64,000 nt of DNA. Origin: a virus. The notes under the pieces are model-generated. The model saw only the letters and a program-made list of their open reading frames with translations. It was not told the origin of the DNA and searched no databases. The stretch is from IMG/VR virus record IMGVR_UViG_3300011187_000003, positions 1 through 64,000 of that record. One strand, given 5' to 3'. This document shows positions 1 to 21,339 of this stretch, in pieces (the first letter of the stretch is position 1; every line of letters begins with the position of its first letter). The position numbers and the translations under genes are program-made.

Positions 1-1371
1 AAAGTAATTACCTATGATAAAGCAGGAAATTCATCAGCTGATGGTTTTTATACCATGACTACAGATGATATTACTGAGCCTGTAATTGGCTACAATGTAA
101 ACTCTACTAGCTGGCAAAACACTGATGTAGACGAAACAGTTAATGTAGATGATGCAGGAGGCTCAGGAGTAGCAAACGCATGGTATAAGTGGACTAATTC
201 AGCCACACAACCTACTGATGGATGGGTAGTAATGGGTACAACTACAGACTTCTCTACACCACAATCACAGGAAGGTAAATGGTACTTACACATAAAAGCT
301 ACTGATAACTATGATAACACAGCGTACGACTACTCAGGAGCCTATAAGATTGATAAAACAGTACCAACTATCTCATCTACTAATATCTCAATTGACTCCC
401 CTACTGGCATTTATGATACATATACAGCTACAGTAACATGGACTATTGAAGATGACAGAGCAGGAGTAGATAGAACAGAGATAGGCTTTTATGTAGATGG
501 AACATGGTATTATGATGAGACCAACTTACCTGATGGAATAACAGCAGATATAGATATGGATAATGTAACAGGTAATGGTAGTAAGACAGCTACATTTAGT
601 AATGTACCTAGAGAGATTGATATTGCCACTAGTTGGCAAGGGTATGACATTGCGACTAATGAAACAGTTGAAGAGCAGAGTGAAACAGTTTATACACCTA
701 GAATATATGAAACATATACTACAGTTACACCAACTTCATATGAGATAGGAAAGACAGATACTTTAATTATTCCTACTGAATATGAAATAGGAATCACTGA
801 TAGTACTCAATCACCTAGTGAGTATATAATTGATGTGCTTTCAAAATCAACTTCAGCACCTAGTGTTTATGGAATAGGACTGACTCAAGCATCAACCATA
901 GCTCCTAGTGAATATGAGATAGGCATTACTGATTCAAAATCAGCCCCTAGTCTTTACGACATCATTGCCTTATATGATGAACCTATATTAGTTAGTGGTA
1001 AATACAAACAAGGCTTAAGAATAGGAACATCAGATATTGAGGTAGATGTTAGTGAATTTTCAGGTGGCTGGACAATGCACTTATTCAGAAGAGGAGAGCA
1101 AGATAAAGAATTTAGAGATATATTCGCTCTTTCAAGTGGGGATGTATATATAGATGGTGAAGTAGATGAATCCTATGACACTAGCTGGTTTACACACACT
1201 GAAGATAAAATAACAATTAAAAGTGGTGCAATAGATATAGATGAGTTATTAATTATACCATATGAATTAGTACCATCAGAGATAAAGACATTAACAGGTT
1301 CTGCTTTCTATGACACTAGTCCAAATATAACGATTGGCAAACCTAGTACAGCAAATATGGAGGTTTTATAA
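1..1371 (+). CDS. Tail/baseplate-associated structural protein, 5'-truncated
   Basis: Frame open from base 1; Thr/Asp-rich Ig-like segments (WYLHIKATD..N, DKAGN), repeated PS.Y.IG motif; lies upstream of the lysis genes. Confidence 0.6.
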   Translation, partial: KVITYDKAGNSSADGFYTMTTDDITEPVIGYNVNSTSWQNTDVDETVNVDDAGGSGVANAWYKWTNSATQPTDGWVVMGTTTDFSTPQSQEGKWYLHIKATDNYDNTAYDYSGAYKIDKTVPTISSTNISIDSPTGIYDTYTATVTWTIEDDRAGVDRTEIGFYVDGTWYYDETNLPDGITADIDMDNVTGNGSKTATFSNVPREIDIATSWQGYDIATNETVEEQSETVYTPRIYETYTTVTPTSYEIGKTDTLIIPTEYEIGITDSTQSPSEYIIDVLSKSTSAPSVYGIGLTQASTIAPSEYEIGITDSKSAPSLYDIIALYDEPILVSGKYKQGLRIGTSDIEVDVSEFSGGWTMHLFRRGEQDKEFRDIFALSSGDVYIDGEVDESYDTSWFTHTEDKITIKSGAIDIDELLIIPYELVPSEIKTLTGSAFYDTSPNITIGKPSTANMEVL

Positions 1372-1372
1372 A

Positions 1373-2593
1373 ATGGCAAAGGTATATAAGGATATTTACA
1401 TAGATTGGGACTGGACTGGAGATAATAATTTACTGAAGGGGTTTAATGTTGGAATTACCCCTTCCAGTGGTGACCCTAAGCATGATGCAATTATTATTCA
1501 AAAGACAAGTGCAGAAAAAACTGATATAAAAGATAAAGGTACAGAGCAGTATGAACATATTTTTAGAAATGTAATACTAGAGAAAGGTGTTGAACATATT
1601 GCATGGGTACAGGCATTAACTGAAGGAGACGACAGTGACTGGTTAAGTACTAACAAAATGGTAGTAGCAGATGATGGAACAGCTACAGTTGCTACTACAG
1701 ATGCAGATGGTAATCCTATTACAGCTTCAAGTGGAGATGTAGTAATTGACAACAGTGGTATTAGTATTGCCAATGGTAAACTAACCATTAATGGCTCTCA
1801 AGGAGCTAGCCAAGATGATGTTAGCAGTACGAAAACAGATGTTGAGAATTATGCAGATGGTGTTGCTGATACTGCTGAGGAAAATGCCAAAAACTATGCA
1901 CAGGCTAAAATACCAAAATCTATGACAGCACCAAGTAACCCGAATGATGGTGACTTATGGATAGACATTACCCCCATCCCTAACATCTTAAAAAGATACG
2001 AGTCAGATACAACTAGTTGGGTTAAATTAACACCTACTAGCCCTAATGATGTAGGAGCAGAGGGAGAGATAATTAAATCTAGCACAGCACCAAATAGCCC
2101 CTATACAGGTAAGTTATGGGTAGATACATCTATGTCACCTAGTGCACTTAAAAGATACAATGGTACATCTTGGGAGACAACAAGAATAACTGATACATCA
2201 CAAGTAAACGATGGTGCAGGATTAGGAAGTACAGCAGATTGGACACAAGTTAATGATGATGGTGGTAAACCTGTAGATAATGCGACTCCTAATGATTTTG
2301 ATTTATATGTAGGAATAGGTGGTGGTGGAGATGTAAGGATAGACTCAGATGGGCTAACCATAAACAATGGAAAGTTAACCATTAATGGTTCTACTCCTGA
2401 TAAGACATCTGAGAATCATGCTAAAGACCAACATGACTTTGACCAGCTGGAAGGAAGTGCTGGTAAGATAACAATTAATAGTGATGGAATAACAGCAGAG
2501 AACAGTGATGGATATAAAACAGTTGATATTGGCTCTGAACAAGGGGATGCTTTCTTTTCAGGTGATGTTGTTGGAGCAGTATATAATGAATAA
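1373..2593 (+). CDS. Tail fibre/host-specificity-type protein
   Basis: GGAGG RBS before ATG 1373; repeated AP..P..G.LW.D and ID..G++I.NGKLTING motifs typical of tail proteins. Confidence 0.65.
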   Translation: MAKVYKDIYIDWDWTGDNNLLKGFNVGITPSSGDPKHDAIIIQKTSAEKTDIKDKGTEQYEHIFRNVILEKGVEHIAWVQALTEGDDSDWLSTNKMVVADDGTATVATTDADGNPITASSGDVVIDNSGISIANGKLTINGSQGASQDDVSSTKTDVENYADGVADTAEENAKNYAQAKIPKSMTAPSNPNDGDLWIDITPIPNILKRYESDTTSWVKLTPTSPNDVGAEGEIIKSSTAPNSPYTGKLWVDTSMSPSALKRYNGTSWETTRITDTSQVNDGAGLGSTADWTQVNDDGGKPVDNATPNDFDLYVGIGGGGDVRIDSDGLTINNGKLTINGSTPDKTSENHAKDQHDFDQLEGSAGKITINSDGITAENSDGYKTVDIGSEQGDAFFSGDVVGAVYNE

Positions 2594-2616
2594 TTTAAAT
2601 AAATGTATAGTATTGG

Positions 2617-2645
2617 TTGAAAAAGTATAATGTTTTGTGTATAAT
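2617..2645 (+). promoter_or_regulatory. Promoter TTGAAA-17-TATAAT upstream of the Cys-repeat/radical SAM operon
   Basis: tggTTGAAA...tgtgTATAATaata; the same motif recurs at five other intergenic sites in the window. Confidence 0.65.
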
Positions 2646-2679
2646 AATATTAGAAAAGGAAAGAGGGAGGTGATATTTA

Positions 2680-4170
2680 ATGTCATATTGTGGTTCAGGA
2701 GATACAACTTCTTGGACTGACCCCTCTTTGGTGGCAAATAAAGCATCAGTTAGAGGAATACATATGAGGGAGTTAAGGAAAGCAGTTCAAGAATTTCATG
2801 TAGAAACTGCAGGTGGTGATGCTGGCAAAAGAGTCATTTGGGATAAAAATGATAACAACTGCACAACAGGAGAGTCAACAAGTTCTCCTAATTATGGAGT
2901 TGTTGACAAGGTTACTACTATAAAAGCTAAACATATAACACAACTTAGAAATATTTTAGATTCATATTCTAATTTGCAGGGGTTCTCATCCTTCTATTGG
3001 GAAGAAGATGATGTTAGTGGTGGCATTACAAAAATTAGAGCTACACATATTAAAAGATTAAGAAATGCAGTTAACCTAATAGAAGAAAGGGGAGCGCTTA
3101 ATTGTGAAAACTGTCAAACTTCTTATGAATACAATCCATGTGGCTCATCATGCCAAACAACTTCAGAAACAAACCCTTGTCAAACATGTGAATCAGTAAT
3201 TGAAGGATATGATTGTGACTCAAATTGTCAGGTTTCTTGCCAAAGAACCTGCCAGCTATGTGAAGCTTGCACAGAGACTGGTTGTGAAACTGGTTGTGAG
3301 GTAGCATGTGAATCGACTTGTGAAAAATCATGTCAAACCTCTACACAAACTTGCTCTACATGCGATATAAGTTGTCAAACAGCATGTGAAACTGACCCAT
3401 GTCAAGTTTGCCAAAGTACCTGTGAGTCAAGTTGTCAAAGTGGCTGTGAAGATAGCTGTGAGGGTACATGTGAGAATACATGCGAAACTGCATGTGAAGA
3501 TAGCTGTCAGGCTACTTGTCAGTCAGTTTGCCAAACTCAATGTGAGGCTGATTGCCAACAGGCATGTGAGTTATTCTGTGAGACAACCTGCGAACAATCA
3601 TGTGAAAGCTCTTGTGACACAGGGTGCGAAGATGCCTGTGAGGAAGGTTGTGAAACTAGTTGTGAAGTAAGTTGTCAGGACAGTTGTGAAACTGGATGTA
3701 TGACAACATGTGAAATTGGTTGCCAAATGTCATGTGAGCTTATGTGTGAAGATGCATGTGAGATAAACTGCATGACTGCTTGTGAGACTGGTTGTCAACT
3801 TTTATGTGAAATGAGTTGCCAAACAACTTGTGAACAATATTGTCAAGTAGGCTGTGAGGTAAGCTGTGAAACAGGATGTGAAGTTTCTTGTGAGGAAGGC
3901 TGTGAGGTAAGCTGTGAAACAGGATGTGAAGTAAGTTGTCAGGACAGTTGTGAAACTGGATGTATGACAACATGTGAAATTGGGTGTGAAACTGGTTGTC
4001 AGGTTAATTGTCAATATGCTTGTGAGTATGAATCTCAGCACAGTGACCACAGTGACCACAGTGACCACAGTGACCACAGTGACCACAGTGACCACAGTGA
4101 CCACAGTGATTATTCAAATACATGGTCAGGAGATGCACCAGGATGTGGTACAGGTGATACAATTGGCTAA
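2680..4170 (+). CDS. Cys-rich repeat protein (74 Cys in C(E/Q)xx register plus (HSD)8); putative radical SAM substrate
   Basis: GGAGGTG RBS; N-terminal domain with three I(K/R)A.H+..LR repeats; Cys core 3103-4023; directly upstream of three radical SAM genes. Confidence 0.85.
   Translation: MSYCGSGDTTSWTDPSLVANKASVRGIHMRELRKAVQEFHVETAGGDAGKRVIWDKNDNNCTTGESTSSPNYGVVDKVTTIKAKHITQLRNILDSYSNLQGFSSFYWEEDDVSGGITKIRATHIKRLRNAVNLIEERGALNCENCQTSYEYNPCGSSCQTTSETNPCQTCESVIEGYDCDSNCQVSCQRTCQLCEACTETGCETGCEVACESTCEKSCQTSTQTCSTCDISCQTACETDPCQVCQSTCESSCQSGCEDSCEGTCENTCETACEDSCQATCQSVCQTQCEADCQQACELFCETTCEQSCESSCDTGCEDACEEGCETSCEVSCQDSCETGCMTTCEIGCQMSCELMCEDACEINCMTACETGCQLLCEMSCQTTCEQYCQVGCEVSCETGCEVSCEEGCEVSCETGCEVSCQDSCETGCMTTCEIGCETGCQVNCQYACEYESQHSDHSDHSDHSDHSDHSDHSDHSDYSNTWSGDAPGCGTGDTIG
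3661..3983 (+). repeat. Internal exact duplications in the Cys-repeat gene
   Basis: 3661-3719 recurs at 3925-3983; 3850-3884 recurs at 3898-3932. Confidence 0.85.
4039..4110 (+). repeat. Tandem repeat (CACAGTGAC)x8 encoding (His-Ser-Asp)8
   Basis: Eight 9-bp units read directly, last unit ends GAT. Confidence 0.97.
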
Positions 4171-4192
4171 AAAGAACAAAAGGAGGGGTATT

Positions 4193-5041
4193 TTGTACCT
4201 TGATTTACATATCACAAAAAGATGTAACTTAGATTGTAAACATTGCTATTTAAGCAGTAAAGAAAAAGAGCAGGGTAGTGATATGAGTTTTAAAGTACTA
4301 AAAAACATAGCAAATAATTACTTAAATATTAATCATCCTTCTACAGCAGAGAAAAGAATTATAATAAGTGGGGGAGAACCAACATTACACCCTGAAATTG
4401 ATAGATTTTTATCTTACATTAATAAAGTTTATGATGGAAGATTAATTATTCCCTCTAATGGAGTAGGTGTAAAGAGGCTGCTTGACACTGGAGCAGTCTC
4501 TAAACAAAATAGAATACAAATTAGCTTAGATGGCAATAAAAAAATACATGATTCTATAAGGGGAGAAGGTAGTTTTGGAACTGCTATAGAAGCGTTAAGG
4601 GAGCTAAAAAGAAGAGGGTTTAAAACACATATATTTTTTACTATCAACCAACATAATGAGCATACATTCTCAGAAGTTAAGAGGATAGCAAAAGGTCTTG
4701 GTGTAAAGGTCTTTCTTAATTACTACCATAGTGTAGACAACACAAAAGACAGCTTGGGGATGATAAGTAAGTCAAAGTTTATAAAATATTTAAAGAATTA
4801 TAACAATACAAATAAATGCTATTTAAATAATTGTGTTGCTGGGATAGAAGGATGTGTTGTTATGCCAAATGGTGAATATTATGACTGCACAAGGAACATG
4901 AAATACTTAGGAAAGTACCCATCAAAATTAGAAGAGGTTTTGTTGATGAGTAGAGCCAAGGACTATGACTATAAAAACCCTTGTAATACTTGTATGTCAC
5001 TAGAGGTTGATAATTTTGAATTTAGTTGTTTAGGAAGGTAG
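4193..5041 (+). CDS. Radical SAM protein 1 with short Cys-rich C-terminal (twitch/SPASM-like) domain
   Basis: AGGAGG then TTG 4193 (ORF-track start 3974 is spurious); CNLDCKHC, SGGEP, ISLDG, C-terminal CYLNNCVAG...C...C..C. Confidence 0.9.
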   Translation: MYLDLHITKRCNLDCKHCYLSSKEKEQGSDMSFKVLKNIANNYLNINHPSTAEKRIIISGGEPTLHPEIDRFLSYINKVYDGRLIIPSNGVGVKRLLDTGAVSKQNRIQISLDGNKKIHDSIRGEGSFGTAIEALRELKRRGFKTHIFFTINQHNEHTFSEVKRIAKGLGVKVFLNYYHSVDNTKDSLGMISKSKFIKYLKNYNNTNKCYLNNCVAGIEGCVVMPNGEYYDCTRNMKYLGKYPSKLEEVLLMSRAKDYDYKNPCNTCMSLEVDNFEFSCLGR

Positions 5042-5051
5042 GGGATAGATA

Positions 5052-5936
5052 TTGTTTATTGATTTACATGTGACTGAAAGATGCAACCTTAGATGTAAAC
5101 ATTGCTATCTTGATGAGGAGTACTTTGAGAATGGAAAGCAAATGTCATTTGATATGTACACTTCATTAGTAGATAAGCTTTACACAATGGAACACAAAGA
5201 TGACCATAGAAAGGTCTACTTAAGTGGTGGGGAATGTACTACCCACCCAAGAATTGGAGATATGATTAAGTATATTCATTATAAATATAATGATTCTATA
5301 GCAATGGTAACAAATGGCTATAAAATTCCTGAATTATTAAAGGGGACTGCACTTACCCCTGATGATGGCCTCTCTATTAGCCTAGATGGTAATAAAGAGG
5401 TTCATAATTGGGTAAGGGGGGATGGTTCCTTTCAACAGGTCAAAGAGGCACTAAAAGCTTTACAGAACCATAATCACCATAATTATAATTTACACCTTAC
5501 TGTTCATCAAAAAAACATAGACCAAGTTGAAGAGGTTTGTGAGTTTGGTAAAAAGTATGGCGCAGGTATGGTTGGGATTAACTTCTTTCAACCAGTTAGG
5601 GGAGAGGAGCATCCATTTGACTCTGTGTCACTAGACCAATATTGGGATGCAGTAGAAACTGCAAAAGAATATTTTGGTCACAAGAAATACAGGACACCAT
5701 GTTATGTGAATGGTTGTCATGCAGGAATAGATGCTCTAGCAATATTACCTGATGGTACTTATTGGGATTGTGCTAGAAACCAAAAAGAATTAGGTAAGTA
5801 TCCTGAAGATTTTGAAAAAGCTATATATAGAAACTTGCTTGAATTATATGGAAAAAGGGACTCTAGGGAAACATGCATGAAGGGATATGTGGAAACTATA
5901 GGAGAAATAAAAAACTATAAGGGAGAGGATAATTAA
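5052..5936 (+). CDS. Radical SAM protein 2, paralogue of protein 1
   Basis: CNLRCKHC, SGGE, ISLDG, CYVNGCHAG...DC...C; colinear with 4193-5041. Confidence 0.92.
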   Translation: MFIDLHVTERCNLRCKHCYLDEEYFENGKQMSFDMYTSLVDKLYTMEHKDDHRKVYLSGGECTTHPRIGDMIKYIHYKYNDSIAMVTNGYKIPELLKGTALTPDDGLSISLDGNKEVHNWVRGDGSFQQVKEALKALQNHNHHNYNLHLTVHQKNIDQVEEVCEFGKKYGAGMVGINFFQPVRGEEHPFDSVSLDQYWDAVETAKEYFGHKKYRTPCYVNGCHAGIDALAILPDGTYWDCARNQKELGKYPEDFEKAIYRNLLELYGKRDSRETCMKGYVETIGEIKNYKGEDN

Positions 5937-5937
5937 T

Positions 5938-7248
5938 ATGGAGAACAATAACTTTAAGGAAATTTCAAACATTTCACTATTATTAACTGAGGATTGTAAC
6001 TTTAGATGTGAGTATTGCTTTATTGACAAAAACCCTAGTGAAATATCACTTGAAACTGCTAAAGATGCAGTTGATTGGCTGGTAGGGCAAAATGAAAATG
6101 ATAGATTACATATTAACTTTTTTGGAGGAGAACCAATGTTGAAGTTTGACCTAATCAAAAAAATTGTTCTATATGCAGAAAATAACTATGATAGACAATT
6201 TGGTTTTGGTGTAACAACTAATGGTTCTTTATTTAATGATGAAAGATTAGACTTCTTTGAAGAGCATAATATGTCAGCACTATTTTCTATAGATGGTATT
6301 GAAGAAGTACATAATAGACATAGGAAATATAAGGATGGCTCAGGAACTTTTAAAGATGTTGAAGAGAACATGAAAAAATGTGTAGAAAGAGGGATATCAA
6401 GAGTAGGTAGGCCAACATATACTCCTGAAACCTTACCACATTTATATGAAACAGTTAAATATCTACTGGATGAGATTGGGTTTAAGTCTGTATCACCAAC
6501 ACCAGCTGTAGATGGTTTCATTGAGTTTACTGAGGAAGATTATGAGGAGTATGACAAGCAATGGAAGAAAATTAATAAGTATTTTAAAGATAGCATCCTA
6601 ATGGAAGAGGATGTAGGTTTAGGGTATTACAGCAAATGCTTTAGACAGCATTTTGGACAACATAAAATGCAAACTCCATGTGGTGCAGGTAAAAAGTATG
6701 TAGGTATCAATCATAAAGGAGATATCTTTCCCTGTCACAGATTCGTGCAATGGCAAGAATGGAAGTTAGGTGATGTTTATGATGGCATAAAATATAATCA
6801 AAGAAGAAGTATTTTTCATGACTTTCATAATGATGATACTAGTGAAGAGTGCAGGAAGTGTGATAATAAATTCTGTGGTGGTGGATGTTTTGCAGTAAAC
6901 TATTCTACTACAGGAGATATTCATAAAACCAGTAAGGATAGCTGTAAGCTATCTAAATTACAGTGGGATAATGCAATGGATATTTATGAAGAGCTTAAGA
7001 TGTCAAATAAATTCCAACAAAAATATAGTCAATATATTGAAAATGCCCCTGAAGAAATAAAAGAAGAGATTGGGTATAATGATGAAGAAAAAAGAGATAA
7101 CAAACAAAGCAGGGACAAACAACAGTATCAATCCTCACAAAAGAGTAATGATATTGAGGAGCTAAAGAAAAGGGTTGATAATTTAGAGCAAGCAGTATCA
7201 TCAATTAGTAATATTATACTAGAAAATTCTAAGGAGGAAGGTAGATAA
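5938..7248 (+). CDS. Radical SAM/SPASM peptide maturase-like protein 3
   Basis: CNFRCEYC, FFGGEP, TTNG, SIDG; full SPASM CGAG...IFPCHRF...C..C....CGGGC...C; C-terminal coiled coil. Confidence 0.93.
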   Translation: MENNNFKEISNISLLLTEDCNFRCEYCFIDKNPSEISLETAKDAVDWLVGQNENDRLHINFFGGEPMLKFDLIKKIVLYAENNYDRQFGFGVTTNGSLFNDERLDFFEEHNMSALFSIDGIEEVHNRHRKYKDGSGTFKDVEENMKKCVERGISRVGRPTYTPETLPHLYETVKYLLDEIGFKSVSPTPAVDGFIEFTEEDYEEYDKQWKKINKYFKDSILMEEDVGLGYYSKCFRQHFGQHKMQTPCGAGKKYVGINHKGDIFPCHRFVQWQEWKLGDVYDGIKYNQRRSIFHDFHNDDTSEECRKCDNKFCGGGCFAVNYSTTGDIHKTSKDSCKLSKLQWDNAMDIYEELKMSNKFQQKYSQYIENAPEEIKEEIGYNDEEKRDNKQSRDKQQYQSSQKSNDIEELKKRVDNLEQAVSSISNIILENSKEEGR

Positions 7249-7568
7249 TGACAAAAGTTATTTTAAAAGATGCAGACAACACAGAACTATTTAGTAAGGC
7301 AGATAGTGAGTTTGAAAAAGCAGAGATTCTTAAGAGAAAAAGAACCAATGAAGGAGTGGTAGAACTCTTCTCGTTAGAACTTCCAATAGGTCAAGACACA
7401 TTTTTAGAGCAATACAACTCTCTCTCAGAAGGTACTATTGTATTTTCTGATGAAGAGGCTGGAATAAACAAAGGGTTAGAAATTAATGAGGTTGATGAGT
7501 ACAAAATATCAACTAATAGAAGTGGTCAGCTTGTAGAGGTACTTAGTTTCGCAGGCCAAATTCAATAA
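7248..7568 (+). CDS. Hypothetical protein, coupled to radical SAM 3
   Basis: AAGGAGG RBS, TAATG stop/start overlap. Confidence 0.75.
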   Translation: MTKVILKDADNTELFSKADSEFEKAEILKRKRTNEGVVELFSLELPIGQDTFLEQYNSLSEGTIVFSDEEAGINKGLEINEVDEYKISTNRSGQLVEVLSFAGQIQ

Positions 7569-7621
7569 CTAAAAGGGGTGAGACTCCCCTCCTCTGTTTG
7601 CAGTTAAATATTCAGAATATT

Positions 7622-7858
7622 ATGAAAAGGAGTGATAATTTGGGAAGAGATAAGAAGTTACACTTTTTAGTTGGTGCTTTAATTGCCCTTATTGGTGGGG
7701 TTGTAATTTCCCCACTGACAGGCTTTATCTTAGCCTCTATAGCAGGAGTAGTTAAAGATGTTGGTTACGACCTAATACTAGACAAAGGGTGTTTTGAGGT
7801 ACTAGACATTGTTTACACAGTACTAGGGGGTTTATTAATATATATTATTTTAATTTAA
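7622..7858 (+). CDS. Small membrane protein (holin-like), start uncertain
   Basis: DK..HF motif, two to three hydrophobic segments, precedes the endolysin. Confidence 0.6.
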   Translation: MKRSDNLGRDKKLHFLVGALIALIGGVVISPLTGFILASIAGVVKDVGYDLILDKGCFEVLDIVYTVLGGLLIYIILI

Positions 7859-7871
7859 AAGGAGTGATTAA

Positions 7872-8438
7872 ATGATAATTGCACTAGATGCTGGACATGG
7901 GGCAAATGATGGGGGGGCTGTTGATGGAATAGGTGATGATGAGATTTACGAGGATGAGATTTACACTGAAGAAAGTGAGTTAGTATTAAGATACACTAAA
8001 GTACTTAAACAAAAGCTTGAAAGTAAATATGATATCTTACTCACTAGACATGACGATACATTTATCCCACTACATTGCAGAACAGATATAGCAGATGCTA
8101 ATGGAGCTGACCTATTTATCTCCATACATGCTAATTCTTTCTCAGACAGTGATGCAAAAGGTGCTGAGACGATTCATTACCCTACAAGTACAAAAGGCCA
8201 ACAGTTAGCTGTAACTGTACAGAATGGCCTTGTACGAGCCACAGGAGCAGTTGATAGAGGTACAAAGGGTAGAAATAACCTGTATGTACTTGAAGAAGTA
8301 CAAGCACCTGCAATATTAATTGAGTTAGGGTTTATATCAAACCCTGAAGAAGAAGAAAAATTACATAATGAAGAATATTTAGATAAAGCAACTAATGGAA
8401 TAGTTGAAGGAATTAACAAATACATAGAGAGGTGTTAG
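7872..8438 (+). CDS. N-acetylmuramoyl-L-alanine amidase (Amidase_3) endolysin
   Basis: LDAGHG, E, FISIHAN, ILIELGFISN motifs; no cell-wall binding domain. Confidence 0.95.
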   Translation: MIIALDAGHGANDGGAVDGIGDDEIYEDEIYTEESELVLRYTKVLKQKLESKYDILLTRHDDTFIPLHCRTDIADANGADLFISIHANSFSDSDAKGAETIHYPTSTKGQQLAVTVQNGLVRATGAVDRGTKGRNNLYVLEEVQAPAILIELGFISNPEEEEKLHNEEYLDKATNGIVEGINKYIERC

Positions 8439-8439
8439 G

Positions 8440-8877
8440 ATGAGCGACTCCAACAAAAATAGTGAAGAGCTAGGTGGAATCAAAACAAATATTACACAAC
8501 TAAAGAAAAGAGTGGAAAAACTGGAGAATAGAATAAAGGAACTAGAAAGGAAGTTTAATAACTTAGATAAGTCACACTCTAGGTTAGAGACACTAACCTC
8601 AAATCTTTCAAGTAAGATTGGCAGTTTTGACGACAAGCTAGATAACATTGTCAAAGAGATTGAAAATTTGAATAAGCAGTTGGCTGTTAACTCCACAAGG
8701 CAAAATATAGAGAGAGAACAGCGCAACCAAGAGAGAGAGAGCAATAAACTTACAGACCAACTGCTTGATAAGAGGAATCGTACAATATTAATCCTTGTAG
8801 TGGGGTTAGTGTCAGCACTATTGATTAGTTTAGGAATGAATGTCAAAGATGTTGTTGAATTATTTAGTATTATCTAA
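8440..8877 (+). CDS. Coiled-coil protein with C-terminal TM (XhlA-like lysis protein)
   Basis: Heptad repeats then ILILVVGLVSALLISLG; inside the lysis cassette. Confidence 0.6.
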   Translation: MSDSNKNSEELGGIKTNITQLKKRVEKLENRIKELERKFNNLDKSHSRLETLTSNLSSKIGSFDDKLDNIVKEIENLNKQLAVNSTRQNIEREQRNQERESNKLTDQLLDKRNRTILILVVGLVSALLISLGMNVKDVVELFSII

Positions 8878-8888
8878 GGAGTGATGCA

Positions 8889-9089
8889 ATGGACAAAAAT
8901 GAGAATGGTGTTGCTGACAAAAAAGAAGCCTACATATCTTATGGTATAGCTGGCATAGGTCTTATAATGGCTATCTCAGCGTTTTATATGTATCAAGAGT
9001 TTGGGCTTGCTAAAGATTTTTTTTACGCTTCTGTACTGCTCTCAGGGTTTCGTGATGGGATAGATGGTTTAAAAAAGTTTGTTAAATAG
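8889..9089 (+). CDS. Putative holin
   Basis: 66 aa, hydrophobic segments, basic C-terminus, RBS. Confidence 0.55.
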   Translation: MDKNENGVADKKEAYISYGIAGIGLIMAISAFYMYQEFGLAKDFFYASVLLSGFRDGIDGLKKFVK

Positions 9090-9104
9090 GAAGGGGAAGG
9101 TAAT

Positions 9105-9482
9105 ATGTTAAATAAAATTAAGAAGTATGGCTGGATTGCACTATCTGCAATCTTAGCCATTATCACTTTAGGTAAAATGACACTTAGTCATAAGGTACAA
9201 GAGAAAGAAGAGGAGATTGACGAGATTGAGAAGGCTAAACAAAAAAGTAAAGCTAGAGAAAAAGAGATAGATAAAAAACTTGATAAACTTGACAAAAAGA
9301 AAGAAGATGAAAATCATGATAGAAAATTAAAAAGAATAGATAGAAAGACAAAAAAGCTTGAGGAAGAAGGAAAGAAGTTAAGTGAGACAATATCCCAGCT
9401 GGATAAAGAGGGAGATGATGTTGATGAGCAAGAAGATAATAGCGTTAATACTGATAAGCTTGATGATGCTCTCAATAAGTAG
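9105..9482 (+). CDS. N-terminal TM plus coiled coil (i-spanin-like)
   Basis: WIALSAILAIITLG then charged coiled coil. Confidence 0.55.
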   Translation: MLNKIKKYGWIALSAILAIITLGKMTLSHKVQEKEEEIDEIEKAKQKSKAREKEIDKKLDKLDKKKEDENHDRKLKRIDRKTKKLEEEGKKLSETISQLDKEGDDVDEQEDNSVNTDKLDDALNK

Positions 9483-9873
9483 TCCAGTACTGGCCTACTA
9501 CAAGAATGATAATGGTGAGCTAGTCTTTAAACCTGAAGAAGTAAATACCATGCTGGATAAGATAGATAAATCTGAGACTAGGAAGCAAATTATAGACAAA
9601 CAGAAAGAGAAGATATCTAATCTTGAGGAACAGTTAAAACAAAAAGATAAAAAGATAGCAGTCCTAGAAGGTAAGAATCAGGATTTAAATAAAGAAGTTA
9701 ACCTACTAGAGTCAAAGGTGCAAGAGGTAGAGTTCCAGTTAGAGAAGGCAAATGAGCAGTTAAAACTACGAAAAGAGCAAGTTGATACCCTTCAAAAAAG
9801 GGAAAGCTTGTCCTTTACCTCAGAGCTGAAGCTGTTAATCGCTTTAAAAGCCTTTAGTATGGTGGCAAACTAG
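9415..9873 (+). CDS. Signal-peptide coiled-coil protein overlapping the previous gene (spanin partner-like)
   Basis: MSKKIIALILISLMMLSISSPVLA signal, coiled coil, 5' end nested in 9105-9482. Confidence 0.55.
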   Translation: MMLMSKKIIALILISLMMLSISSPVLAYYKNDNGELVFKPEEVNTMLDKIDKSETRKQIIDKQKEKISNLEEQLKQKDKKIAVLEGKNQDLNKEVNLLESKVQEVEFQLEKANEQLKLRKEQVDTLQKRESLSFTSELKLLIALKAFSMVAN

Positions 9874-9880
9874 AATATTT

Positions 9881-9911
9881 AAGGGTATCCTCAACTGGAT
9901 ACCCTTTTTTT
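9881..9911. terminator. Intrinsic terminator between convergent blocks
   Basis: aagggtatcc-tcaact-ggataccctt followed by T-run. Confidence 0.85.
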
Positions 9912-9912
9912 G

Positions 9913-10347
9913 TCAATATGATGTTCTTTTACCTAGATAAAACTCTATAAATATTTTATCATCTTTCATATCTAGTTCAAACTCAGGTAATTTAAACTTA
10001 CCCTCATCTGAGATATTATCTAAATAATCTTTTAAATCAGGTGCAGTAATTTTCTTAGGTTTACCTCCATACTTATCATTCTTCTTTTTTAAAGTAAACA
10101 TAGTACTGTATTCATTTGGTGCATCACATACAGCACAAACTAATTTTTCACTATCTTTATCGAATCCAATCATTATGTGTAGTTTCCCATTATTTTTATC
10201 AAATACATTATCAAACTTAGAGTTAATTTCTTTTAATAAATTTGCAGTAAAATATATTTTAACTTTTCTATCTTGCTCATAGTTGACTGTCAAATAACTG
10301 TCATAACTTCCACCTAACCAATTAATGTTATCTTTATTCCCAATCAT
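9913..10347 (-). CDS. Hypothetical protein, paralogue of 10334-10753
   Basis: Shared KIYF...IG.D pattern; overlapping start/stop. Confidence 0.7.
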   Translation of the reverse strand: MIGNKDNINWLGGSYDSYLTVNYEQDRKVKIYFTANLLKEINSKFDNVFDKNNGKLHIMIGFDKDSEKLVCAVCDAPNEYSTMFTLKKKNDKYGGKPKKITAPDLKDYLDNISDEGKFKLPEFELDMKDDKIFIEFYLGKRTSY

Positions 10348-10753
10348 TTACTATTTCCCCTTTCATATTATCTAATGGTTTGGTAAAGTCTGCATAATAA
10401 GTATTGCCTTCTAACTGTTTAACTTCATATCTTTGCAAATCACCTTTGTTAATTCCTGCAATATTCACAACTTTTCTAGTTATTCTACTAATATTAATTG
10501 TTCCAGTGCCTCCACCATTAGATATTACCAACCTTAATGAATCTATATCATTTACAGTTGTTTCTTTAAAGTACATTCTCTTCTTTATTGCATCAATCCC
10601 TATCTTAATAAATCTATTATTGTTCAATATGTCCCTTACTACTTTAGAATTAAAGTATATTTTTGAATTGTCTCTATTTGCTATACTAACGAATGGAACT
10701 TTAGCCCTTCTATTCCCAATTGACTTTTTGGGTTTAACCCATTCTACACTCAT
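10334..10753 (-). CDS. Hypothetical protein
   Basis: RBS, 139-aa ORF in operon. Confidence 0.7.
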   Translation of the reverse strand: MSVEWVKPKKSIGNRRAKVPFVSIANRDNSKIYFNSKVVRDILNNNRFIKIGIDAIKKRMYFKETTVNDIDSLRLVISNGGGTGTINISRITRKVVNIAGINKGDLQRYEVKQLEGNTYYADFTKPLDNMKGEIVNDWE

Positions 10754-10756
10754 GTT

Positions 10757-11065
10757 TTATTCCCCTTTCCCAAACTCACCTATATTGTCAATAGTTTTGT
10801 TAAGCTCTTCATAGAGGTCTTTATCCTCAGTTTCTTGATAAATCTTAGTCGTACTAATTCTATGCTTAATATCCTGCAATGCCTCATTGTATAGCTGGCC
10901 TGTCTCATGCTTGTATAAAGTTTTAATAGCTCTTCTAACCAACTGAGACTTAGACAAAGACTCTAGTTGTTCCTCAACAAACTCTAACTCCTCTTTCTTC
11001 ATATTATTCTCAGAAAGCCTACCATAGAGCTTAACATGTTTAATCTTATCCCTCATTTTTATCAA
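10757..11065 (-). CDS. ParR-like adaptor (ribbon-helix-helix-like)
   Basis: Small ORF overlapping the 3' end of the actin-like gene; SKSQLVRRAI helix. Confidence 0.55.
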   Translation of the reverse strand: MIKMRDKIKHVKLYGRLSENNMKKEELEFVEEQLESLSKSQLVRRAIKTLYKHETGQLYNEALQDIKHRISTTKIYQETEDKDLYEELNKTIDNIGEFGKGE

Positions 11066-12077
11066 CTCTTTTGTTTTGGTAGACCCCTAATTTATAGTAT
11101 CCTTTTACATTAGATATCTGTGGGTCATCCATAAGGATTACCTCTTTATTAGCCCTGTTAATAAACTTCTTCTTAAGATAACCACCTACAGCCTTAGCAC
11201 CACCACCTGTAAGGATAATCTTATGAACATTATCTAAATAGCGATTCCATTGTGCTAACAACTTAGTGTATATTTCTTCAGCTAACAACTCAAACTGTTT
11301 ATCAGACCTACTCTGAAGGTTCCTGTAAGTCTTTCTACCATACTTAAATTCATCCTCTCCATTTAGATAATGGAATTGAATAATGTTATAGGGTAAACTA
11401 GGGTCAACAGCTTTAAAGGCATCACTTAACCCAACACCAAGTCCTACATCTGTACCTTTAGTTGGCACCATCCCTTTACCTGCAAAAGCATCTACTGTGT
11501 TACCTCCTATATCAACTAGTCCATATCTTTCATTTAGTAACTCATGGTCTTTGATTGCTCCTGAGTAAGTTAAAACTTCATCATAGTATGCTCCAATCCC
11601 CTGTGGAATACACATAACATCATTGATAATGACTTTTCTTTCCTCACCATTTGTTTTGTAGTGAAATACTCTATCTTTATAGAAGTCAATAAATTCTTCT
11701 CTAAACTCATAATAACTTCTTATAGATAAACCACCAACTAACTTACCAATCTCTACACTCTTTTCATTAGAATGTAGTGCAATACCAGCTAATAACTTAG
11801 CAACTTCACTTTCATCTTTAAATTTGTCATACTCAAAATTCCTGTTACCACCTTGTCCATCTTGCTGAATTGCATAGTTACCTAAGAAATACAGCTTATC
11901 ATTATACTGTATTGATATCTTATCAATTGTCAATGAGTTATCCTCATCAATTAAGATATCTCTACTTTGCTTAGGTAGGTAAGAGACAGAGGGGAATATG
12001 ATAGCTTCACTTGATTCTAACATTAGTTTATCACTATCATATCCATTATCCCAACCTATTTGTTCTAAATATTTCAT
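11046..12077 (-). CDS. parM: ParM/StbA-family actin-like ATPase
   Basis: GWDNGYDSDK (phosphate 1), PQG, DIGGNTVD (phosphate 2), ILTGGGA. Confidence 0.88.
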   Translation of the reverse strand: MKYLEQIGWDNGYDSDKLMLESSEAIIFPSVSYLPKQSRDILIDEDNSLTIDKISIQYNDKLYFLGNYAIQQDGQGGNRNFEYDKFKDESEVAKLLAGIALHSNEKSVEIGKLVGGLSIRSYYEFREEFIDFYKDRVFHYKTNGEERKVIINDVMCIPQGIGAYYDEVLTYSGAIKDHELLNERYGLVDIGGNTVDAFAGKGMVPTKGTDVGLGVGLSDAFKAVDPSLPYNIIQFHYLNGEDEFKYGRKTYRNLQSRSDKQFELLAEEIYTKLLAQWNRYLDNVHKIILTGGGAKAVGGYLKKKFINRANKEVILMDDPQISNVKGYYKLGVYQNKRVDKNEG

Positions 12078-15834: not shown

Positions 15835-18800
15835 CTATATTGAACAAACACTAAATCCACATGATTTACATTCTTGACAGCCACCAGTATTGACTAGCTC
15901 ACCTTTACAATCAGGGCAAATACCCTGTTCAATTAAATCAGCATCATTTAGCTCTACTTTATTCTCACTATTATCATCACCACTACTTAGTATTCCTGAC
16001 CTTGCACAACCATCTCTATAGACTGTAATACCTTTTAAGTCTTTTTGCCAAGCATATTTGTAAACATCCTTAATCTCATCAACAGTTGTGCTATTATCTA
16101 AGTTAATGGTACTACTAATACTTGCATCTATGTACTTTTGCCACACTGACTGCATGTTAATTCTTTGCTTATAGTCTAAGTCGTGAGCAGTTACAAAAAT
16201 TTCAGGTAGGTCATCTTTATTATAAACACTCATTTCTTCCATATACTCTTCAACAATAGGAGTAAACACTTCATACTCTACATCTTCATCATAGAGCGTT
16301 TGAGTAGTCCTTGTGTAGCTTAAGTCAAATATAGGCTCTATACCACCACTAATTCCTAGCATGCTTGAAATACTTCCTGTAGGAGCTATAGTAAGCAATT
16401 GAGAGTTCCTTAGCCCATATTTTTTAATCTTATCTATAGTTTCAGGTGTACCAACTGAATTTAAGTAATCACTTTTTAAAACATCCTCACTATATTCAGG
16501 GTATGTAGCCTGTTCTTTTGCTAATTCTGCTGATGTTTTTAGTGCAGTATTTGCCATTTTGCTAGCAATAGAATCGTTGATATCTAGTGATTCTTCACTA
16601 CCATATTCAACATTTAACTTAATCAGCATATCTGCAATACCCATAACACCTAGTCCTATCTGCCTCCACTTATCTACACTATCTCTTTGTTCTTGCAGTG
16701 GATGGAGTGGCACACCTTCATCTAAGACCTCATTAAGGAATTTAACACCATCCTCAACAACCTCTTCAAACTTATCAAAGTTAAAGTAAGCCTCATCTGT
16801 AAATGGCTTCTCAACAAACTCTGAGAGGTTTAAGCTACTCAATAGACAACTACCACCAGCTGGTAATGGCTCTTCAGCGCAGTTATGTACAGTAGCACCC
16901 TCAACAACCCCCCAATGGGTTTTTGGCTCACTGAAATCAAATACCTCTTCTTTTTCTAACTTTTTAACACTTGTGACATATGGGGCTGTCTTTTGTATAA
17001 ACCTTATTAGCTTATCTTCTTTATACTTCTGAACAAAACCAATTTCTTCTAAAAACCTAACTTTGTCATCATGTTGCCTAAGATTTAAGTCATAGCTCTG
17101 CTTGCAGGTACATTCACCATTGTCAAACTCAGCATTAGTTGGCTTGACAGTGGTTGTTATATAAGGACTAAACCCTTGCTTTTCTAAAAATTCATAAACT
17201 TCTTTAACAAGCCCTTTTGATGTTGATTTTAAGGTGACTCTTCCATTGTAAATAGAACCAATTACAGAACCATTAGCACTATATAAACCTCTTATGAAAC
17301 TTAACTTACTAGTTTTATCCCAAACATTAAAGGTAGTTGGTAAGGTTCTTTTTGGTAAAGGTTTAGTTGAAAACCCAAGTGTGTCAATAATATCGTTAAA
17401 CTCATTAATATAATAAGTATAATTATCACTATAAACATCATCTTCACTAACTCCAAACAGCTCTAATAAATCATTATCATTCTCCCCAATATGAACATCA
17501 ATACCTTTATGCTCATCACTATTGACTCTTCCTAAGCTGGCATCACCTTGCATAAAGCCTAACTTTGTGAACTGGCTATTGTACATAGTGTTTTTGCCAA
17601 CATATGGCATAGTTCTTTTACCTTTCATATATTGTGCCTCTACTTGTTTACCTTCATTTGTCATAAAGACATGGTCAGGAGTGCATTTTATAGACTTCTT
17701 GTTATAGAAATTAACTTCTACAATATCTTTAAACCCATTAGACCAAACATTTCCACTAGTCACTTTGCCATCTTTATTTACCACATTAACTCTAGTGTTC
17801 AGTTTGGCTAACTCATCAAACCTTTTGTAGCCATCTTGAGTTAATAGCTCCATATCACCTGTAAAACAGGGGTTAACTCCAGAATACTCAAACCCATCTT
17901 CCTCTGAAAGCAAATTATAGTTTTCAATATTATCCCAAAACAAAAATCCAGGTTCTGCCATATTCCAATTAGAATAAGCAATCTTATTAAATACCCTTCT
18001 TGCATTTACTTCTCTCTTTATCTCTTCACCAGTATCATCTACATAGAAATAAAGCTCATGCTCCTCATCATTTGCAACAGCTTCCATAAAATCATCAGTG
18101 ATTTTTAGTGATATATTAGCCTTAGTTACTGCCTCAAGGTCATTCTTGATATCAATAAACTCTTCAATATCAGGATGGTTAATATCAAGGCTAATCATTA
18201 AGGCTCCACGCCTTCCACGCTGGCCTATGATGTTAGTAGTTAAGGAGTATAGTGGCATAAATGAAACTGCTCCACTAGTCTTTCTAGCACCATTATTAAC
18301 TATAGAATCTTTAGGTCTTAAATTGCTGATGTCAACACCAGCTCCACCACCATATGAGAATGTTCTTGCTAATTTTTTAGATACATCAAAAATAGATTCA
18401 ATGCTATCTTTAGGTGGAGTAATAACATAACAATTAGAATATGTAACCTTCTTACCACGCTTCTGTAGACCTCTATTGGCAAGGATTCTACCAGCTGGCA
18501 TGAAGTATTGGTCTTTAATATGTTTTTTAACCTTATTATTTCCTTCAGTTATTCTATTTAAAAATTCATCTAGGCTTTCACCATCTATTCTATACTTTCT
18601 TTCAAAGATTGACATTGGTAACTCACCAGTAAGCCAACTCTCACTGCGCTTTTTAGCTCTTTCTTGACGATAAATTATGTATCTCTTAGCTGTTTTTATG
18701 TAGCTGAACAACATTAATTTCTCCTCTACAATATCTTGAATTTGCTCTACATTTGGTAGGTTAGTCTCACTAAAGTTATCAACTAATACTTCTTCAATAG

Positions 18801-18945
18801 AGTTTATTAATTCATTCATATCATCAATGCTCTCTTCAGTTTCCTGCTCTGCTGACCTAATTGCCTGTACTACCTTTTCCTTATCATACCTTACAATATC
18901 TCCATCTCTCTTTATTACATTCTCTAACATGTTATTGTCTATCAT
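15835..18945 (-). CDS. nrdJ: Class II (AdoCbl-dependent) ribonucleotide reductase with ATP cone and intein
   Basis: VIKRDG ATP cone, SNCY, GGGAG, RRGA, NP[intein]CAEEPL, GSCLL, TIAPTG, C-terminal CPDC...C..C; no beta subunit gene nearby. Confidence 0.92.
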   Translation of the reverse strand: MIDNNMLENVIKRDGDIVRYDKEKVVQAIRSAEQETEESIDDMNELINSIEEVLVDNFSETNLPNVEQIQDIVEEKLMLFSYIKTAKRYIIYRQERAKKRSESWLTGELPMSIFERKYRIDGESLDEFLNRITEGNNKVKKHIKDQYFMPAGRILANRGLQKRGKKVTYSNCYVITPPKDSIESIFDVSKKLARTFSYGGGAGVDISNLRPKDSIVNNGARKTSGAVSFMPLYSLTTNIIGQRGRRGALMISLDINHPDIEEFIDIKNDLEAVTKANISLKITDDFMEAVANDEEHELYFYVDDTGEEIKREVNARRVFNKIAYSNWNMAEPGFLFWDNIENYNLLSEEDGFEYSGVNPCFTGDMELLTQDGYKRFDELAKLNTRVNVVNKDGKVTSGNVWSNGFKDIVEVNFYNKKSIKCTPDHVFMTNEGKQVEAQYMKGKRTMPYVGKNTMYNSQFTKLGFMQGDASLGRVNSDEHKGIDVHIGENDNDLLELFGVSEDDVYSDNYTYYINEFNDIIDTLGFSTKPLPKRTLPTTFNVWDKTSKLSFIRGLYSANGSVIGSIYNGRVTLKSTSKGLVKEVYEFLEKQGFSPYITTTVKPTNAEFDNGECTCKQSYDLNLRQHDDKVRFLEEIGFVQKYKEDKLIRFIQKTAPYVTSVKKLEKEEVFDFSEPKTHWGVVEGATVHNCAEEPLPAGGSCLLSSLNLSEFVEKPFTDEAYFNFDKFEEVVEDGVKFLNEVLDEGVPLHPLQEQRDSVDKWRQIGLGVMGIADMLIKLNVEYGSEESLDINDSIASKMANTALKTSAELAKEQATYPEYSEDVLKSDYLNSVGTPETIDKIKKYGLRNSQLLTIAPTGSISSMLGISGGIEPIFDLSYTRTTQTLYDEDVEYEVFTPIVEEYMEEMSVYNKDDLPEIFVTAHDLDYKQRINMQSVWQKYIDASISSTINLDNSTTVDEIKDVYKYAWQKDLKGITVYRDGCARSGILSSGDDNSENKVELNDADLIEQGICPDCKGELVNTGGCQECKSCGFSVCSI
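16882..17868 (-). mobile_element. Intein (329 aa) with LAGLIDADG homing endonuclease
   Basis: Starts CFTGD, block B CTPDH, LGFMQGDAS and FIRGLYSANGS, ends VHN before the extein Cys. Confidence 0.93.
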
Positions 18946-20991: not shown

Positions 20992-21339
20992 TTATTCATA
21001 ATAAACTTTTTCAATAGTCTCAGTTTTGCGCTCAACCACTTCAACTGTCATTTGGGTTGGCTGTCCCTCTTGCCTCTCTGTAGCTGGTGCCTGCCAATGA
21101 AATAATAAATACTCACCATCTACATCAAATACAACTTGCATATCATAAGACCAACGACCTCTGTACCCTGTTTCCTCTGACAACACTTCTTCTACTAAGC
21201 CTTCATCAAGTAATTCTTGTGCGCCTTCAACTTCTTCTTCAGCGAGTTGACTTATAGCTTGAAACAAAGATTCTTCAGGACAACCACAATAGTCACCAAT
21301 TTTTGTTTCAACCTCTGCTTTTAAAATATTTATATCCAT
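20992..21339 (-). CDS. Hypothetical phage protein
   Basis: RW...V..V.G...ATE.QE pattern. Confidence 0.7.
   Translation of the reverse strand: MDINILKAEVETKIGDYCGCPEESLFQAISQLAEEEVEGAQELLDEGLVEEVLSEETGYRGRWSYDMQVVFDVDGEYLLFHWQAPATERQEGQPTQMTVEVVERKTETIEKVYYE

Follow-up and report, generated by a model that had tools for sequence, protein, structure and literature searches.

The DNA analyzed here is a window of 64,000 nt that comprises the first 64 kb of the 87,725-bp IMG/VR virus record IMGVR_UViG_3300011187_000003. Positions 2680 to 7568 of this window hold a cassette in which a gene for a protein of extreme cysteine content, here termed the Cys-ladder protein (2680 to 4170), is followed by three genes for radical S-adenosylmethionine (SAM) enzymes and a small coupled open reading frame (ORF) of 106 aa, after which the lysis genes begin. 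With slightly more than even confidence, the cassette is interpreted as a ranthipeptide-type system by which the phage cross-links a protein, which is probably mounted at the end of the tail. Thioether stapling of the Cys-ladder protein, as predicted from the sequences of substrate and enzymes, is considered likely. Attachment of this protein to the virion is held more tentatively, with a confidence somewhat below even.

The Cys-ladder protein (plus strand) has 496 aa, a mass of 53.5 kDa, a calculated pI of 4.1 and no signal peptide. A lipoprotein reading of its N-terminal YCG was dropped for lack of such a signal. The protein contains 77 cysteines, namely C4, C61, C489 and 74 residues located between positions 142 and 448 (307 aa), which agrees with the 74 cysteines in a core of about 307 aa reported in a preliminary description of this DNA. 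Cysteine makes up 15.5% of the protein, whereas none of the 51 other six-frame ORFs of at least 150 aa in the genome exceeds 2.9%, and the core carries 59 acidic versus 2 basic residues. From C244 to C448, 52 consecutive cysteines are spaced by exactly four residues. They form an uninterrupted CXXX array (3409 to 4023, plus strand) of 51 units of the type C-[E/Q]-x-[S/G/T/A] and a closing Cys. Position 2 of the units is occupied by Glu (33), Gln (14), Met (3) or Asp (1), and position 4 by Ser, Gly, Thr or Ala in 42 of the 51 units. At the DNA level, 44 of the 51 12-nt units are distinct, with a mean pairwise identity of 6.6 of 12 nt and conservation of codons 1 and 2. Because the units diverged while these two codons were kept, the array is neither a product of chance nor of recent simple amplification; it is old and under selection.

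The array is preceded by an irregular Cys module (residues 141 to 218; 3100 to 3333, plus strand), which is near-invariant from N141 to C218 in an alignment of all seven homologues. A match to phrog_6085 (E 2e-5) covers residues 116 to 229. Downstream of the array, a (His-Ser-Asp)8 tract is encoded by a perfect 9-bp tandem repeat, (CACAGTGAC)x7.9 (4039 to 4109, plus strand; Tandem Repeats Finder: period 9, 7.9 copies, 100% matches). It is not present in any relative in the alignment. As a perfect and recent DNA repeat that the relatives lack, the tract was dropped as a candidate for a conserved second substrate. The protein ends in the motif W-(S/T)-G-D-x-P-G-C-x-T-x-D-x-(I/V)-G (4123 to 4167, plus strand, defined by alignment), of which W482, G484, D485, P487, G488, C489, T491, D493 and G496 are invariant among five close homologues. 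An AlphaFold2 model of the protein, based on a five-sequence alignment, reached a mean predicted local distance difference test score (pLDDT) of 36.3 and rendered the array as long helices with a pLDDT of up to ~71. A fold search was unwarranted because the quality of this model is too poor.

The N-terminal folded domain (residues 1 to 140; 2680 to 3099, plus strand) is built from a WTDP...(I/V)(K/R)xxH(I/L)xxLRxA repeat in three copies. In an exhaustive profile-free search, 563 representative proteins matched residues 1 to 145 at E<=1e-3. Twelve of these matches were fetched. Three of them, P0003 (376 aa), P0006 (398 aa) and P0007 (421 aa), share the layout of the ladder protein, that is, the N-terminal domain and the near-invariant Cys module (residues 141 to 218) followed by a less regular core rich in Cys and Glu. 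The other fetched proteins show only the WTDP...H(I/L)xELR repeat, often in three copies, and many have a signal peptide or carry the repeat at the ends of long proteins. A domain scan covered 91 of the 150 N-domain matches listed (P0008 to P0100 minus two proteins of >1000 aa) and returned Big_9 in seven, fn3 in six and He_PIG in five proteins, along with leucine-rich repeat (LRR), carbohydrate-binding module (CBM) and Calx-beta domains. Since the repeat co-occurs with immunoglobulin-like, fn3, LRR and CBM domains in secreted multidomain proteins, the N-terminal domain is predicted to be a widespread extracellular module and not a leader peptide. Further look-alikes of the domain in the Atlas are leads only.

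All three enzymes encoded downstream match Pfam Radical_SAM and carry the CxxxCxxC and GGE motifs. The third, enzyme C (436 aa; 5938 to 7248, plus strand), is PapB/CteB/QhpD-like and is the only one with an additional Pfam SPASM match; all seven SPASM cysteines align with those of CteB, and its cluster motif begins at residue 20. The best NCBIfam families are PapB (NF047865, 280.7 bits at a cut-off of 340), with a match that covers the whole 330-position profile, a nif11-type family (240 bits), the QhpD type (TIGR03906, 208.6 bits at a cut-off of 453) and the SCIFF maturases (TIGR03974, 206.1 bits at a cut-off of 425). Lower scores were obtained for TIGR04115 (139.2 bits, cut-off 350), anaerobic sulfatase maturases (97.9 bits) and the CrpC family TIGR04463 (64 bits, cut-off 525). 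The orthologue in the related contig L003 scores 257.2 bits against NF047865. The best solved structure is CteB (5WGG, E 2e-50), with residues 11 to 347 of enzyme C aligned to residues 98 to 446 of CteB. As the alignment begins at CteB residue 98, enzyme C is without a CteB-type N-terminal RiPP recognition element (RRE; RiPP, peptide made by the ribosome and modified after translation). A C-terminal extension of ~90 aa, also found in the relatives, ends in a stretch that looks heptad-like by eye. These comparisons support the grouping of enzyme C with thioether-forming peptide and protein maturases (PapB, nif11-type, QhpD, SCIFF) and not with nucleotide or cofactor enzymes, an outcome for which a profile search had been proposed as a check.

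The other two radical SAM enzymes are shorter. Enzyme A (282 aa; 4193 to 5041, plus strand) starts at a TTG codon at 4193 behind AAGGAGG at 4181 to 4187, not at the GTG at 3974 given in the mechanical ORF list. Enzyme B (294 aa; 5052 to 5936, plus strand) is a paralogue of A with 33.6% identity, and each of the two shares 38-41% identity with the one short enzyme that the relatives have. The twitch-like Cx4C...C...C tail of enzyme A is shared by B and by more distant homologues, and it presumably represents a twitch-type site for a single auxiliary cluster. The content of the cassette was thus described correctly in the preliminary account: three CxxxCxxC enzymes and a coupled small ORF follow the Cys-repeat gene, and one enzyme has a full SPASM domain next to two short-tailed paralogues. 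Its statement that the block lacks a transporter, a protease and an obvious RRE gene was borne out as well, as no match to transporter, protease or RRE/PqqD families was obtained anywhere in the cassette in Pfam and NCBIfam scans. A homologue of the short twitch-type enzymes, P0174 (494 aa), is fused to a C-terminal region of ~220 aa, a fusion that might hint at the partner or substrate of these enzymes.

The last gene of the cassette (106 aa; 7248 to 7568, plus strand) overlaps the stop codon of enzyme C by one base, and its translation is predicted to be coupled to that of the enzyme. It has no match in Pfam, NCBIfam or PHROG; a 108-aa ORF in the corresponding place in the relatives shares 39-40% identity with it. 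AlphaFold2, given four sequences, produced an all-beta model with a pLDDT of 89.3. Foldseek comparison of this model to the PDB and to viral models (BFVD) returned almost exclusively tail-tube, baseplate-hub, Hcp and contractile-injection tube proteins at E ~1e-3 and TM scores of 0.5-0.6, headed by the monocin tube 8qhs. In VIA, the best match was the phage 80alpha baseplate (6v8i_AB; Z 8.6, root-mean-square deviation 3.9, 102 of 106 residues aligned). Five of 997 chains reached Z>=8, a level that can reflect a common arrangement of elements, and tube-type proteins accounted for 48 of the 50 rows listed. The Atlas provided Sipho_Gp37, Prophage_tailD1 and YQBQ clusters, as leads only. The modeled fold is therefore probably a beta-sandwich of the tail-tube/Hcp type. 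A single complex prediction of this protein with the N-terminal domain of the ladder protein gave a score of 0.00 ("no answer").

The cassette is conserved in related phages. A word-indexed search with residues 1 to 150 found two proteins with 65-66% identity, and alignment-based scans, including those of IMG/VR that retrieved L003 and L004, yielded four distinct contigs (L003, L004, L006 and L007; L005 is the L003 contig), a count that covers contigs reaching beyond the Cys gene on its downstream side. In all four, the Cys protein is followed by a single short radical SAM enzyme of 276 aa, a SPASM enzyme of 441-443 aa, the 108-aa ORF and then holin-like and lysin genes, in line with the expected co-occurrence of Cys-repeat and radical SAM genes. 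The Cys proteins have 395 (L003), 371 (L004), 395 (L006) and 335 aa (L007). Across homologues, their length ranges from 335 to 496 aa, and the differences in the array amount to entire blocks of units. Three of the contigs extend upstream of the Cys gene and encode there a 926-aa fiber-like protein, a 337-aa protein, a reverse transcriptase of 376-377 aa and small ORFs (L003, 6596 to 9833; L004, 6597 to 9834; L007, 1 to 2484). The C-terminal ~35 residues of the 337-aa virion-type protein differ between L003 and L004, and a 124-aa ORF of L007 is putatively Avd-like. The region looks like a diversity-generating retroelement that would act on a receptor-binding protein. The reverse transcriptase has no match in the genome of the window.

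Other searches returned no relatives. Megablast of positions 1 to 12,000 against phages gave no match, and neither did IMG/VR scans with a single query, either the Cys protein or enzyme C. Scans of GTDB genomes, performed with the seven-homologue alignment and with P0006 as query, retrieved no relative and hence no host or prophage copy. The sole tblastn match of the Cys protein in phage collections, MT837480.1, was rejected because it is a Bacteroides-type CXXX/Tat locus and probably bacterial DNA. This record (L010) and MT835472.1 (L012) are labeled "UNVERIFIED Bacteriophage sp." from human feces, and both look bacterial at these loci. The former encodes a CXXX-repeat target with a twin-arginine translocation (Tat) signal, proteins of TIGR04115, TIGR04119 and TIGR04116 and, by eye, TatA/TatC-like ORFs. 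In the latter, a classical SCIFF peptide and a 451-aa SCIFF maturase are followed by a 716-aa multi-pass membrane ORF that appears SecDF-like by eye.

Characterized systems were compared on the basis of PMC8326336, PMC12373016 and PMC13692751. CteB links Cys32 of its SCIFF substrate to Thr37 (i+5) or Thr34, the acceptor carbon always lying beside a functional group, and holds the leader with its N-terminal RRE (PMC8326336). PapB connects Cys to the carbon beside the carboxylate of an Asp or Glu located downstream, at i+1 to i+7, installing six tandem thioethers while the leader is docked on its RRE (PMC12373016). Cross-linking of whole proteins by radical SAM thioether chemistry has been published for QhpC and, in September 2026, for CrpA, a 28.8-kDa repeat protein of Methanococcus voltae in which CrpC installs ranthionine links; the latter study also sets a precedent for domain-level recognition (PMC13692751).

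Among these systems, SCIFF/CteB shares the register of the repeat. The 47-aa SCIFF precursor of L012 has the core CQTS-CQSA-CKTS-CT, which agrees with the phage array in composition and four-residue register, and in both systems C-[Q/K]-x-[S/A]-like units recur every four residues next to a radical SAM enzyme with a seven-Cys SPASM domain and a known or proposed link from Cys to a side-chain carbon. However, SCIFF peptides have ~47 aa, six cysteines and a leader peptide, compared to 496 aa, 77 cysteines, an uninterrupted four-spaced run of 52 cysteines and a folded N-terminal domain in the phage protein. The match of enzyme C to the SCIFF maturase profile starts at profile position 95 and leaves out the RRE; phage encoding and the two additional twitch-type enzymes are further differences. 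PapB is the best-scoring family, including the radical SAM core and a complete seven-Cys SPASM domain, but the PapA motif is C-x3-D and that of the phage C-E/Q-x-x-C, with Asp at position 2 in one of 51 units, and PapB uses an RRE, none of which was found in the phage cassette. QhpC, a bacterial enzyme subunit, receives three links from the RRE-dependent QhpD, whereas the enzyme of the cassette is surrounded by phage genes and dozens of links are proposed for its array. CrpA resembles the phage protein in being a large Cys-rich repeat protein with an N-terminal recognition region, C-x-x-Q/D motifs in C-terminal repeats and a neighboring SPASM enzyme (PMC13692751). Its repeat, in contrast, spans 17 residues instead of four, CrpC has an RRE, and the system is archaeal and has no phage context.

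In another system, the CXXX-repeat target (TIGR04115/04119/04116/04117), Cys likewise occupies every fourth position over a long run, and the neighboring enzyme is a PapB-related radical SAM protein. MT837480.1, a genuine member of this system, scores 630, 235 and 105 bits in its families. TIGR04119 is not among the best 25 of 72-73 families for the short enzymes, and the small ORF has no NCBIfam match and thus none to TIGR04116. The CXXX-repeat target has a twin-arginine signal, units rich in Gly, Ser and Lys and tatA/tatC as neighbors, unlike the phage protein, which is without a signal peptide. The CXXX-repeat target system is not known to have been characterized. The phage system resembles SCIFF, PapB, QhpD and CrpC maturation but, by curated scores, is assigned to none of these families, nor is it the TIGR04115/04119/04116 system. 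In literature searches, a radical SAM/Cys-repeat system of this type was not found described for any phage, which upholds the earlier statement that no characterized phage example is known; it needs to be complemented by the protein-scale precedents QhpC and CrpA. The main text of PMC13692751 does not contain the word "phage", although its supplementary cluster list might hold viral entries, and one cyanophage paper lists a radical SAM maturase merely as an "antibiotic synthesis gene".

According to the proposed mechanism, enzyme C would remove a hydrogen from a side-chain carbon adjacent to a functional group and bond this carbon to a Cys sulfur that an auxiliary Fe-S cluster holds in place, in the manner of CteB, PapB and QhpD. 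Proceeding along the C-[E/Q]-x-[small] array, it would install intrachain thioether rings, up to some 50-70 in number. The acceptor would be the residue after each Cys (S to C-gamma or C-beta). This position is chosen because it is the most constrained non-Cys position and because Glu, Gln, Met and Asp all have a methylene group beside a carboxyl, amide or thioether. As donor, either the Cys directly before it (i+1) or that of the preceding unit (i+5, the Cys32-Thr37 register of CteA) would serve, resulting in a chain of small rings. Since the three enzymes are without an RRE, recognition would probably rely on a substitute, that is, the folded N-terminal domain, the invariant Cys module (141 to 218) or the repeat itself. 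Enzymes A and B probably add a second type of modification, either at the irregular Cys module or at the aromatic and His-containing C-terminal motifs. As signal peptide, transporter and protease are lacking, the mature acidic protein would leave the cell at lysis only. Together with the tube-fold 106-aa protein, it would probably form an exposed appendage at the end of the tail, in which the regular array would be ~30 nm long if it stays helical after stapling.

The genomic context bears on this proposed location. The record has direct terminal repeats of 123 bp, and its end encodes a terminase, a 1650-aa tape measure protein and a 1155-aa tail-fiber/minor-tail protein, with the cassette located downstream of these. 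A further large ORF spans the end of the record into positions 1 to 1371. It is followed by a 419-aa fiber-like ORF (1334 to 2593, plus strand; weak PHROG matches and position), the last ~25 residues of which resemble, by eye, the C-terminus of the 926-aa fiber-like protein of the relatives. A gap of 86 nt separates this ORF from the Cys-ladder gene. Downstream, the cassette is flanked by an 86-aa membrane ORF, a putative holin, and an Amidase_3 endolysin (7872 to 8438), which together occupy 7598 to 8438 on the plus strand (Pfam, PHROG). The location before the lysis genes, as stated in the preliminary description, was thereby established. Its label of the two ORFs directly upstream as tail genes is a matter of their position and weak PHROG matches only.

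A promoter-like site, TTGAAA-17-TATAAT with the extended -35 motif TTGAMAAAGTWTA, is located directly upstream of the Cys-ladder gene (2617 to 2645, plus strand) and is the best promoter match (11/12) within positions 1 to 10,500. The motif TTGAMAAAGTWTA occurs nine times in the window versus 0.03 expected matches, namely at 2617, at 21,002 and in seven copies between 45,549 and 48,555. The latter copies (45.5-48.6 kb) precede short ORFs within a block of 3 kb. Common to the aligned sites are, in addition, a -10 region of the TG-n-TATA type and an AGTGA box downstream. The motif was not found upstream of the Cys genes of the relatives. The cassette is thus predicted to have its own sigma-70-type promoter of a stereotyped family of this phage. 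Because this promoter family is otherwise concentrated in the short-ORF block, an independently expressed accessory gene would fit. The only strong terminator is located at 9881 to 9906, and transcription from 2617 would therefore read into the holin and endolysin genes. The idea of an early anti-restriction DNA mimic was dropped, as the gene lies in the late region and its promoter reads into lysis genes. With respect to RNA data, none are listed among the 24 runs that hold the phage.

A virion role is plausible in view of the placement where the tail module ends, the tube fold of the last gene, the extracellular type of the N-terminal domain, the lack of an export signal and the fiber-like variation in repeat number. 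In its most specific form, the proposal describes a rigid, acidic, protease- and reductant-resistant thioether-ladder rod of ~30 nm on the tail tip, attached via the tube-fold adaptor and set in length by gain and loss of repeats; this form is regarded as rather doubtful. Several observations weigh against the combined interpretation. Regarding the location, these are the predicted promoter of the cassette, the reverse-transcriptase cassette between fiber genes and Cys gene in the three relatives, a terminator hairpin just upstream of the Cys gene in L003 and L007 (the two read), a tblastn search of phage collections with the N-terminal domain in which no annotated phage protein matched, and the tube-fold match of the small ORF, which is middling (Z 8.6; E ~1e-3) and silent on function. 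Regarding the chemistry, enzyme C scores under the curated cut-off of every named family, so its activity is extrapolated, and the NCBIfam matches of A and B do not go beyond the radical SAM core (best ~88 bits, cut-offs 340-650). Gln and Met, a third of the putative acceptors, are undocumented for PapB, which is restricted to acidic side chains according to PMC12373016. SCIFF peptides were found to contain one thioether only despite six cysteines (PMC8326336), which makes a complete ladder a matter of extrapolation.

The same chemistry could act on a protein that is not part of the virion, that is, a giant SCIFF-like "moron" product with its own promoter, freed at lysis or retained in the cell. 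Signaling, antagonism of competitors, metal capture or, given the regular acidic charge, mimicry of nucleic acids against host defenses would be possible roles. The region between tail and lysis genes commonly hosts accessory genes, and moron genes often have their own promoter, which is in accordance with the junction and the stereotyped sigma-70-type site observed here; retroelement and terminator hairpin, in addition, set the cassette apart from the fiber genes in the relatives. The acidic composition of the core fits such roles as well. SCIFF peptides are widespread in Clostridia, a distribution that the authors regard as speaking against an antimicrobial role, and a table gives quorum sensing as function (PMC8326336), and metal binding was suggested for CrpA (PMC13692751). 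On the other hand, the last gene of the cassette is a conserved, coupled ORF with a tail-tube fold, the N-terminal domain is of a type known from extracellular structural and adhesive proteins, a protein of 53 kDa that includes a folded domain does not resemble a diffusible signal, and a promoter that reads into holin and endolysin genes does not suit a purely early function. Overall, this alternative appears unlikely, albeit deserving serious consideration. A proteolytic version, in which the N-terminal domain would be a long leader and host proteases would cut the array into small stapled peptides, is highly improbable. Repetitive multi-core precursors do occur in RiPP biology, and the leader-plus-core layout of CrpA and SCIFF is similar; yet the cassette is without protease or exporter, neither a spacer nor a cleavage motif recurs in the array, the conserved C-terminal motif behind it argues for an intact protein, and the N-terminal domain is a widespread folded repeat domain.

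It is also improbable, if somewhat less so, that the array is not cross-linked at all and instead uses its Cys/Glu pairs, along with the (HSD)8 tail, to bind metals or Fe-S clusters. In that case, the radical SAM enzymes would perform other chemistry on the Cys protein or on another phage protein, such as epimerization, conversion of Cys to formylglycine or cyclophane formation at the aromatic and His motifs. Cys-rich repeat proteins mostly provide metal ligands (PMC13692751), the C-terminus is rich in His and contains W/Y-S-x motifs, and the unmodified array was modeled, at low confidence, as long helices. The short enzymes have no assignable family and match cyclophane-forming YhhB and anaerobic sulfatase maturases weakly. 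Enzyme C, however, has thioether synthases as its best matches throughout, with the anaerobic sulfatase maturases far below; the repeat is in the SCIFF register, and the His tract is the recent addition that the relatives lack. The preferred interpretation thus remains thioether cross-linking of the Cys-ladder protein, probably at the end of the tail.

Contigs that are at least 99% alike were found in four further runs labeled lake water or salt lake metagenome, a selection from which one run that may itself be the source was excluded. Over positions 2500 to 7700, no indels are listed for these lake-run contigs, and coverage of the array is patchy. The relatives' type of Cys gene co-occurs in the lake runs at higher depth. 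In two of them, a contig of higher depth joins 52 letters of 2598 to 2649 to the opposite strand of the start of the holin gene (~7625 to 7700). No inverted repeat that would explain this 2649/~7700 joint was found in the window; the contig possibly stems from a related phage with another arrangement.

Elsewhere in the window, coiled-coil and membrane-anchored ORFs (145, 66, 125 and 163 aa) are located between the endolysin gene and the terminator (8440 to 9873) and are possibly spanin-like or lysis accessory proteins. An actin-like protein of the ALP/ParM type (ALP_N and MreB-like_C; 11,046 to 12,077, minus strand) may serve in genome segregation or positioning. The large subunit of ribonucleotide reductase (15,835 to 18,945, minus strand), with ATP-cone and barrel, is split by an intein with a LAGLIDADG domain. 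According to Pfam, it is not of the anaerobic class III type and is uninformative on oxygen. A 362-aa protein with an alpha-amylase catalytic domain (19,182 to 20,270, minus strand) adjoins the genes of nucleotide metabolism. As DNA polymerase III alpha matches phages of Moorella, Bacillus and Geobacillus at 33-39% identity, the host may be guessed to belong to the Bacillota.

Radical SAM thioether chemistry has been studied mainly on short peptides, and protein substrates such as QhpC and CrpA are rare. The cassette adds a compact and conserved phage locus, enzymes without an RRE and an extreme substrate that combines 52 four-spaced cysteines, a mass of 53 kDa and a folded domain. Recognition and processing of a long repeat, and the effect of a thioether ladder on a protein, thereby become testable by co-expression. 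A genetically encoded route to stapled rods of defined length would follow if the proposal is true. If the product is indeed a vulcanized part of the particle, it would be the first virion protein matured by radical SAM enzymes and by far the most densely cross-linked ribosomal product known. Its presence on the particle would define a new class of virion maturation and would bear on the stability of phages in harsh, saline and reducing habitats.

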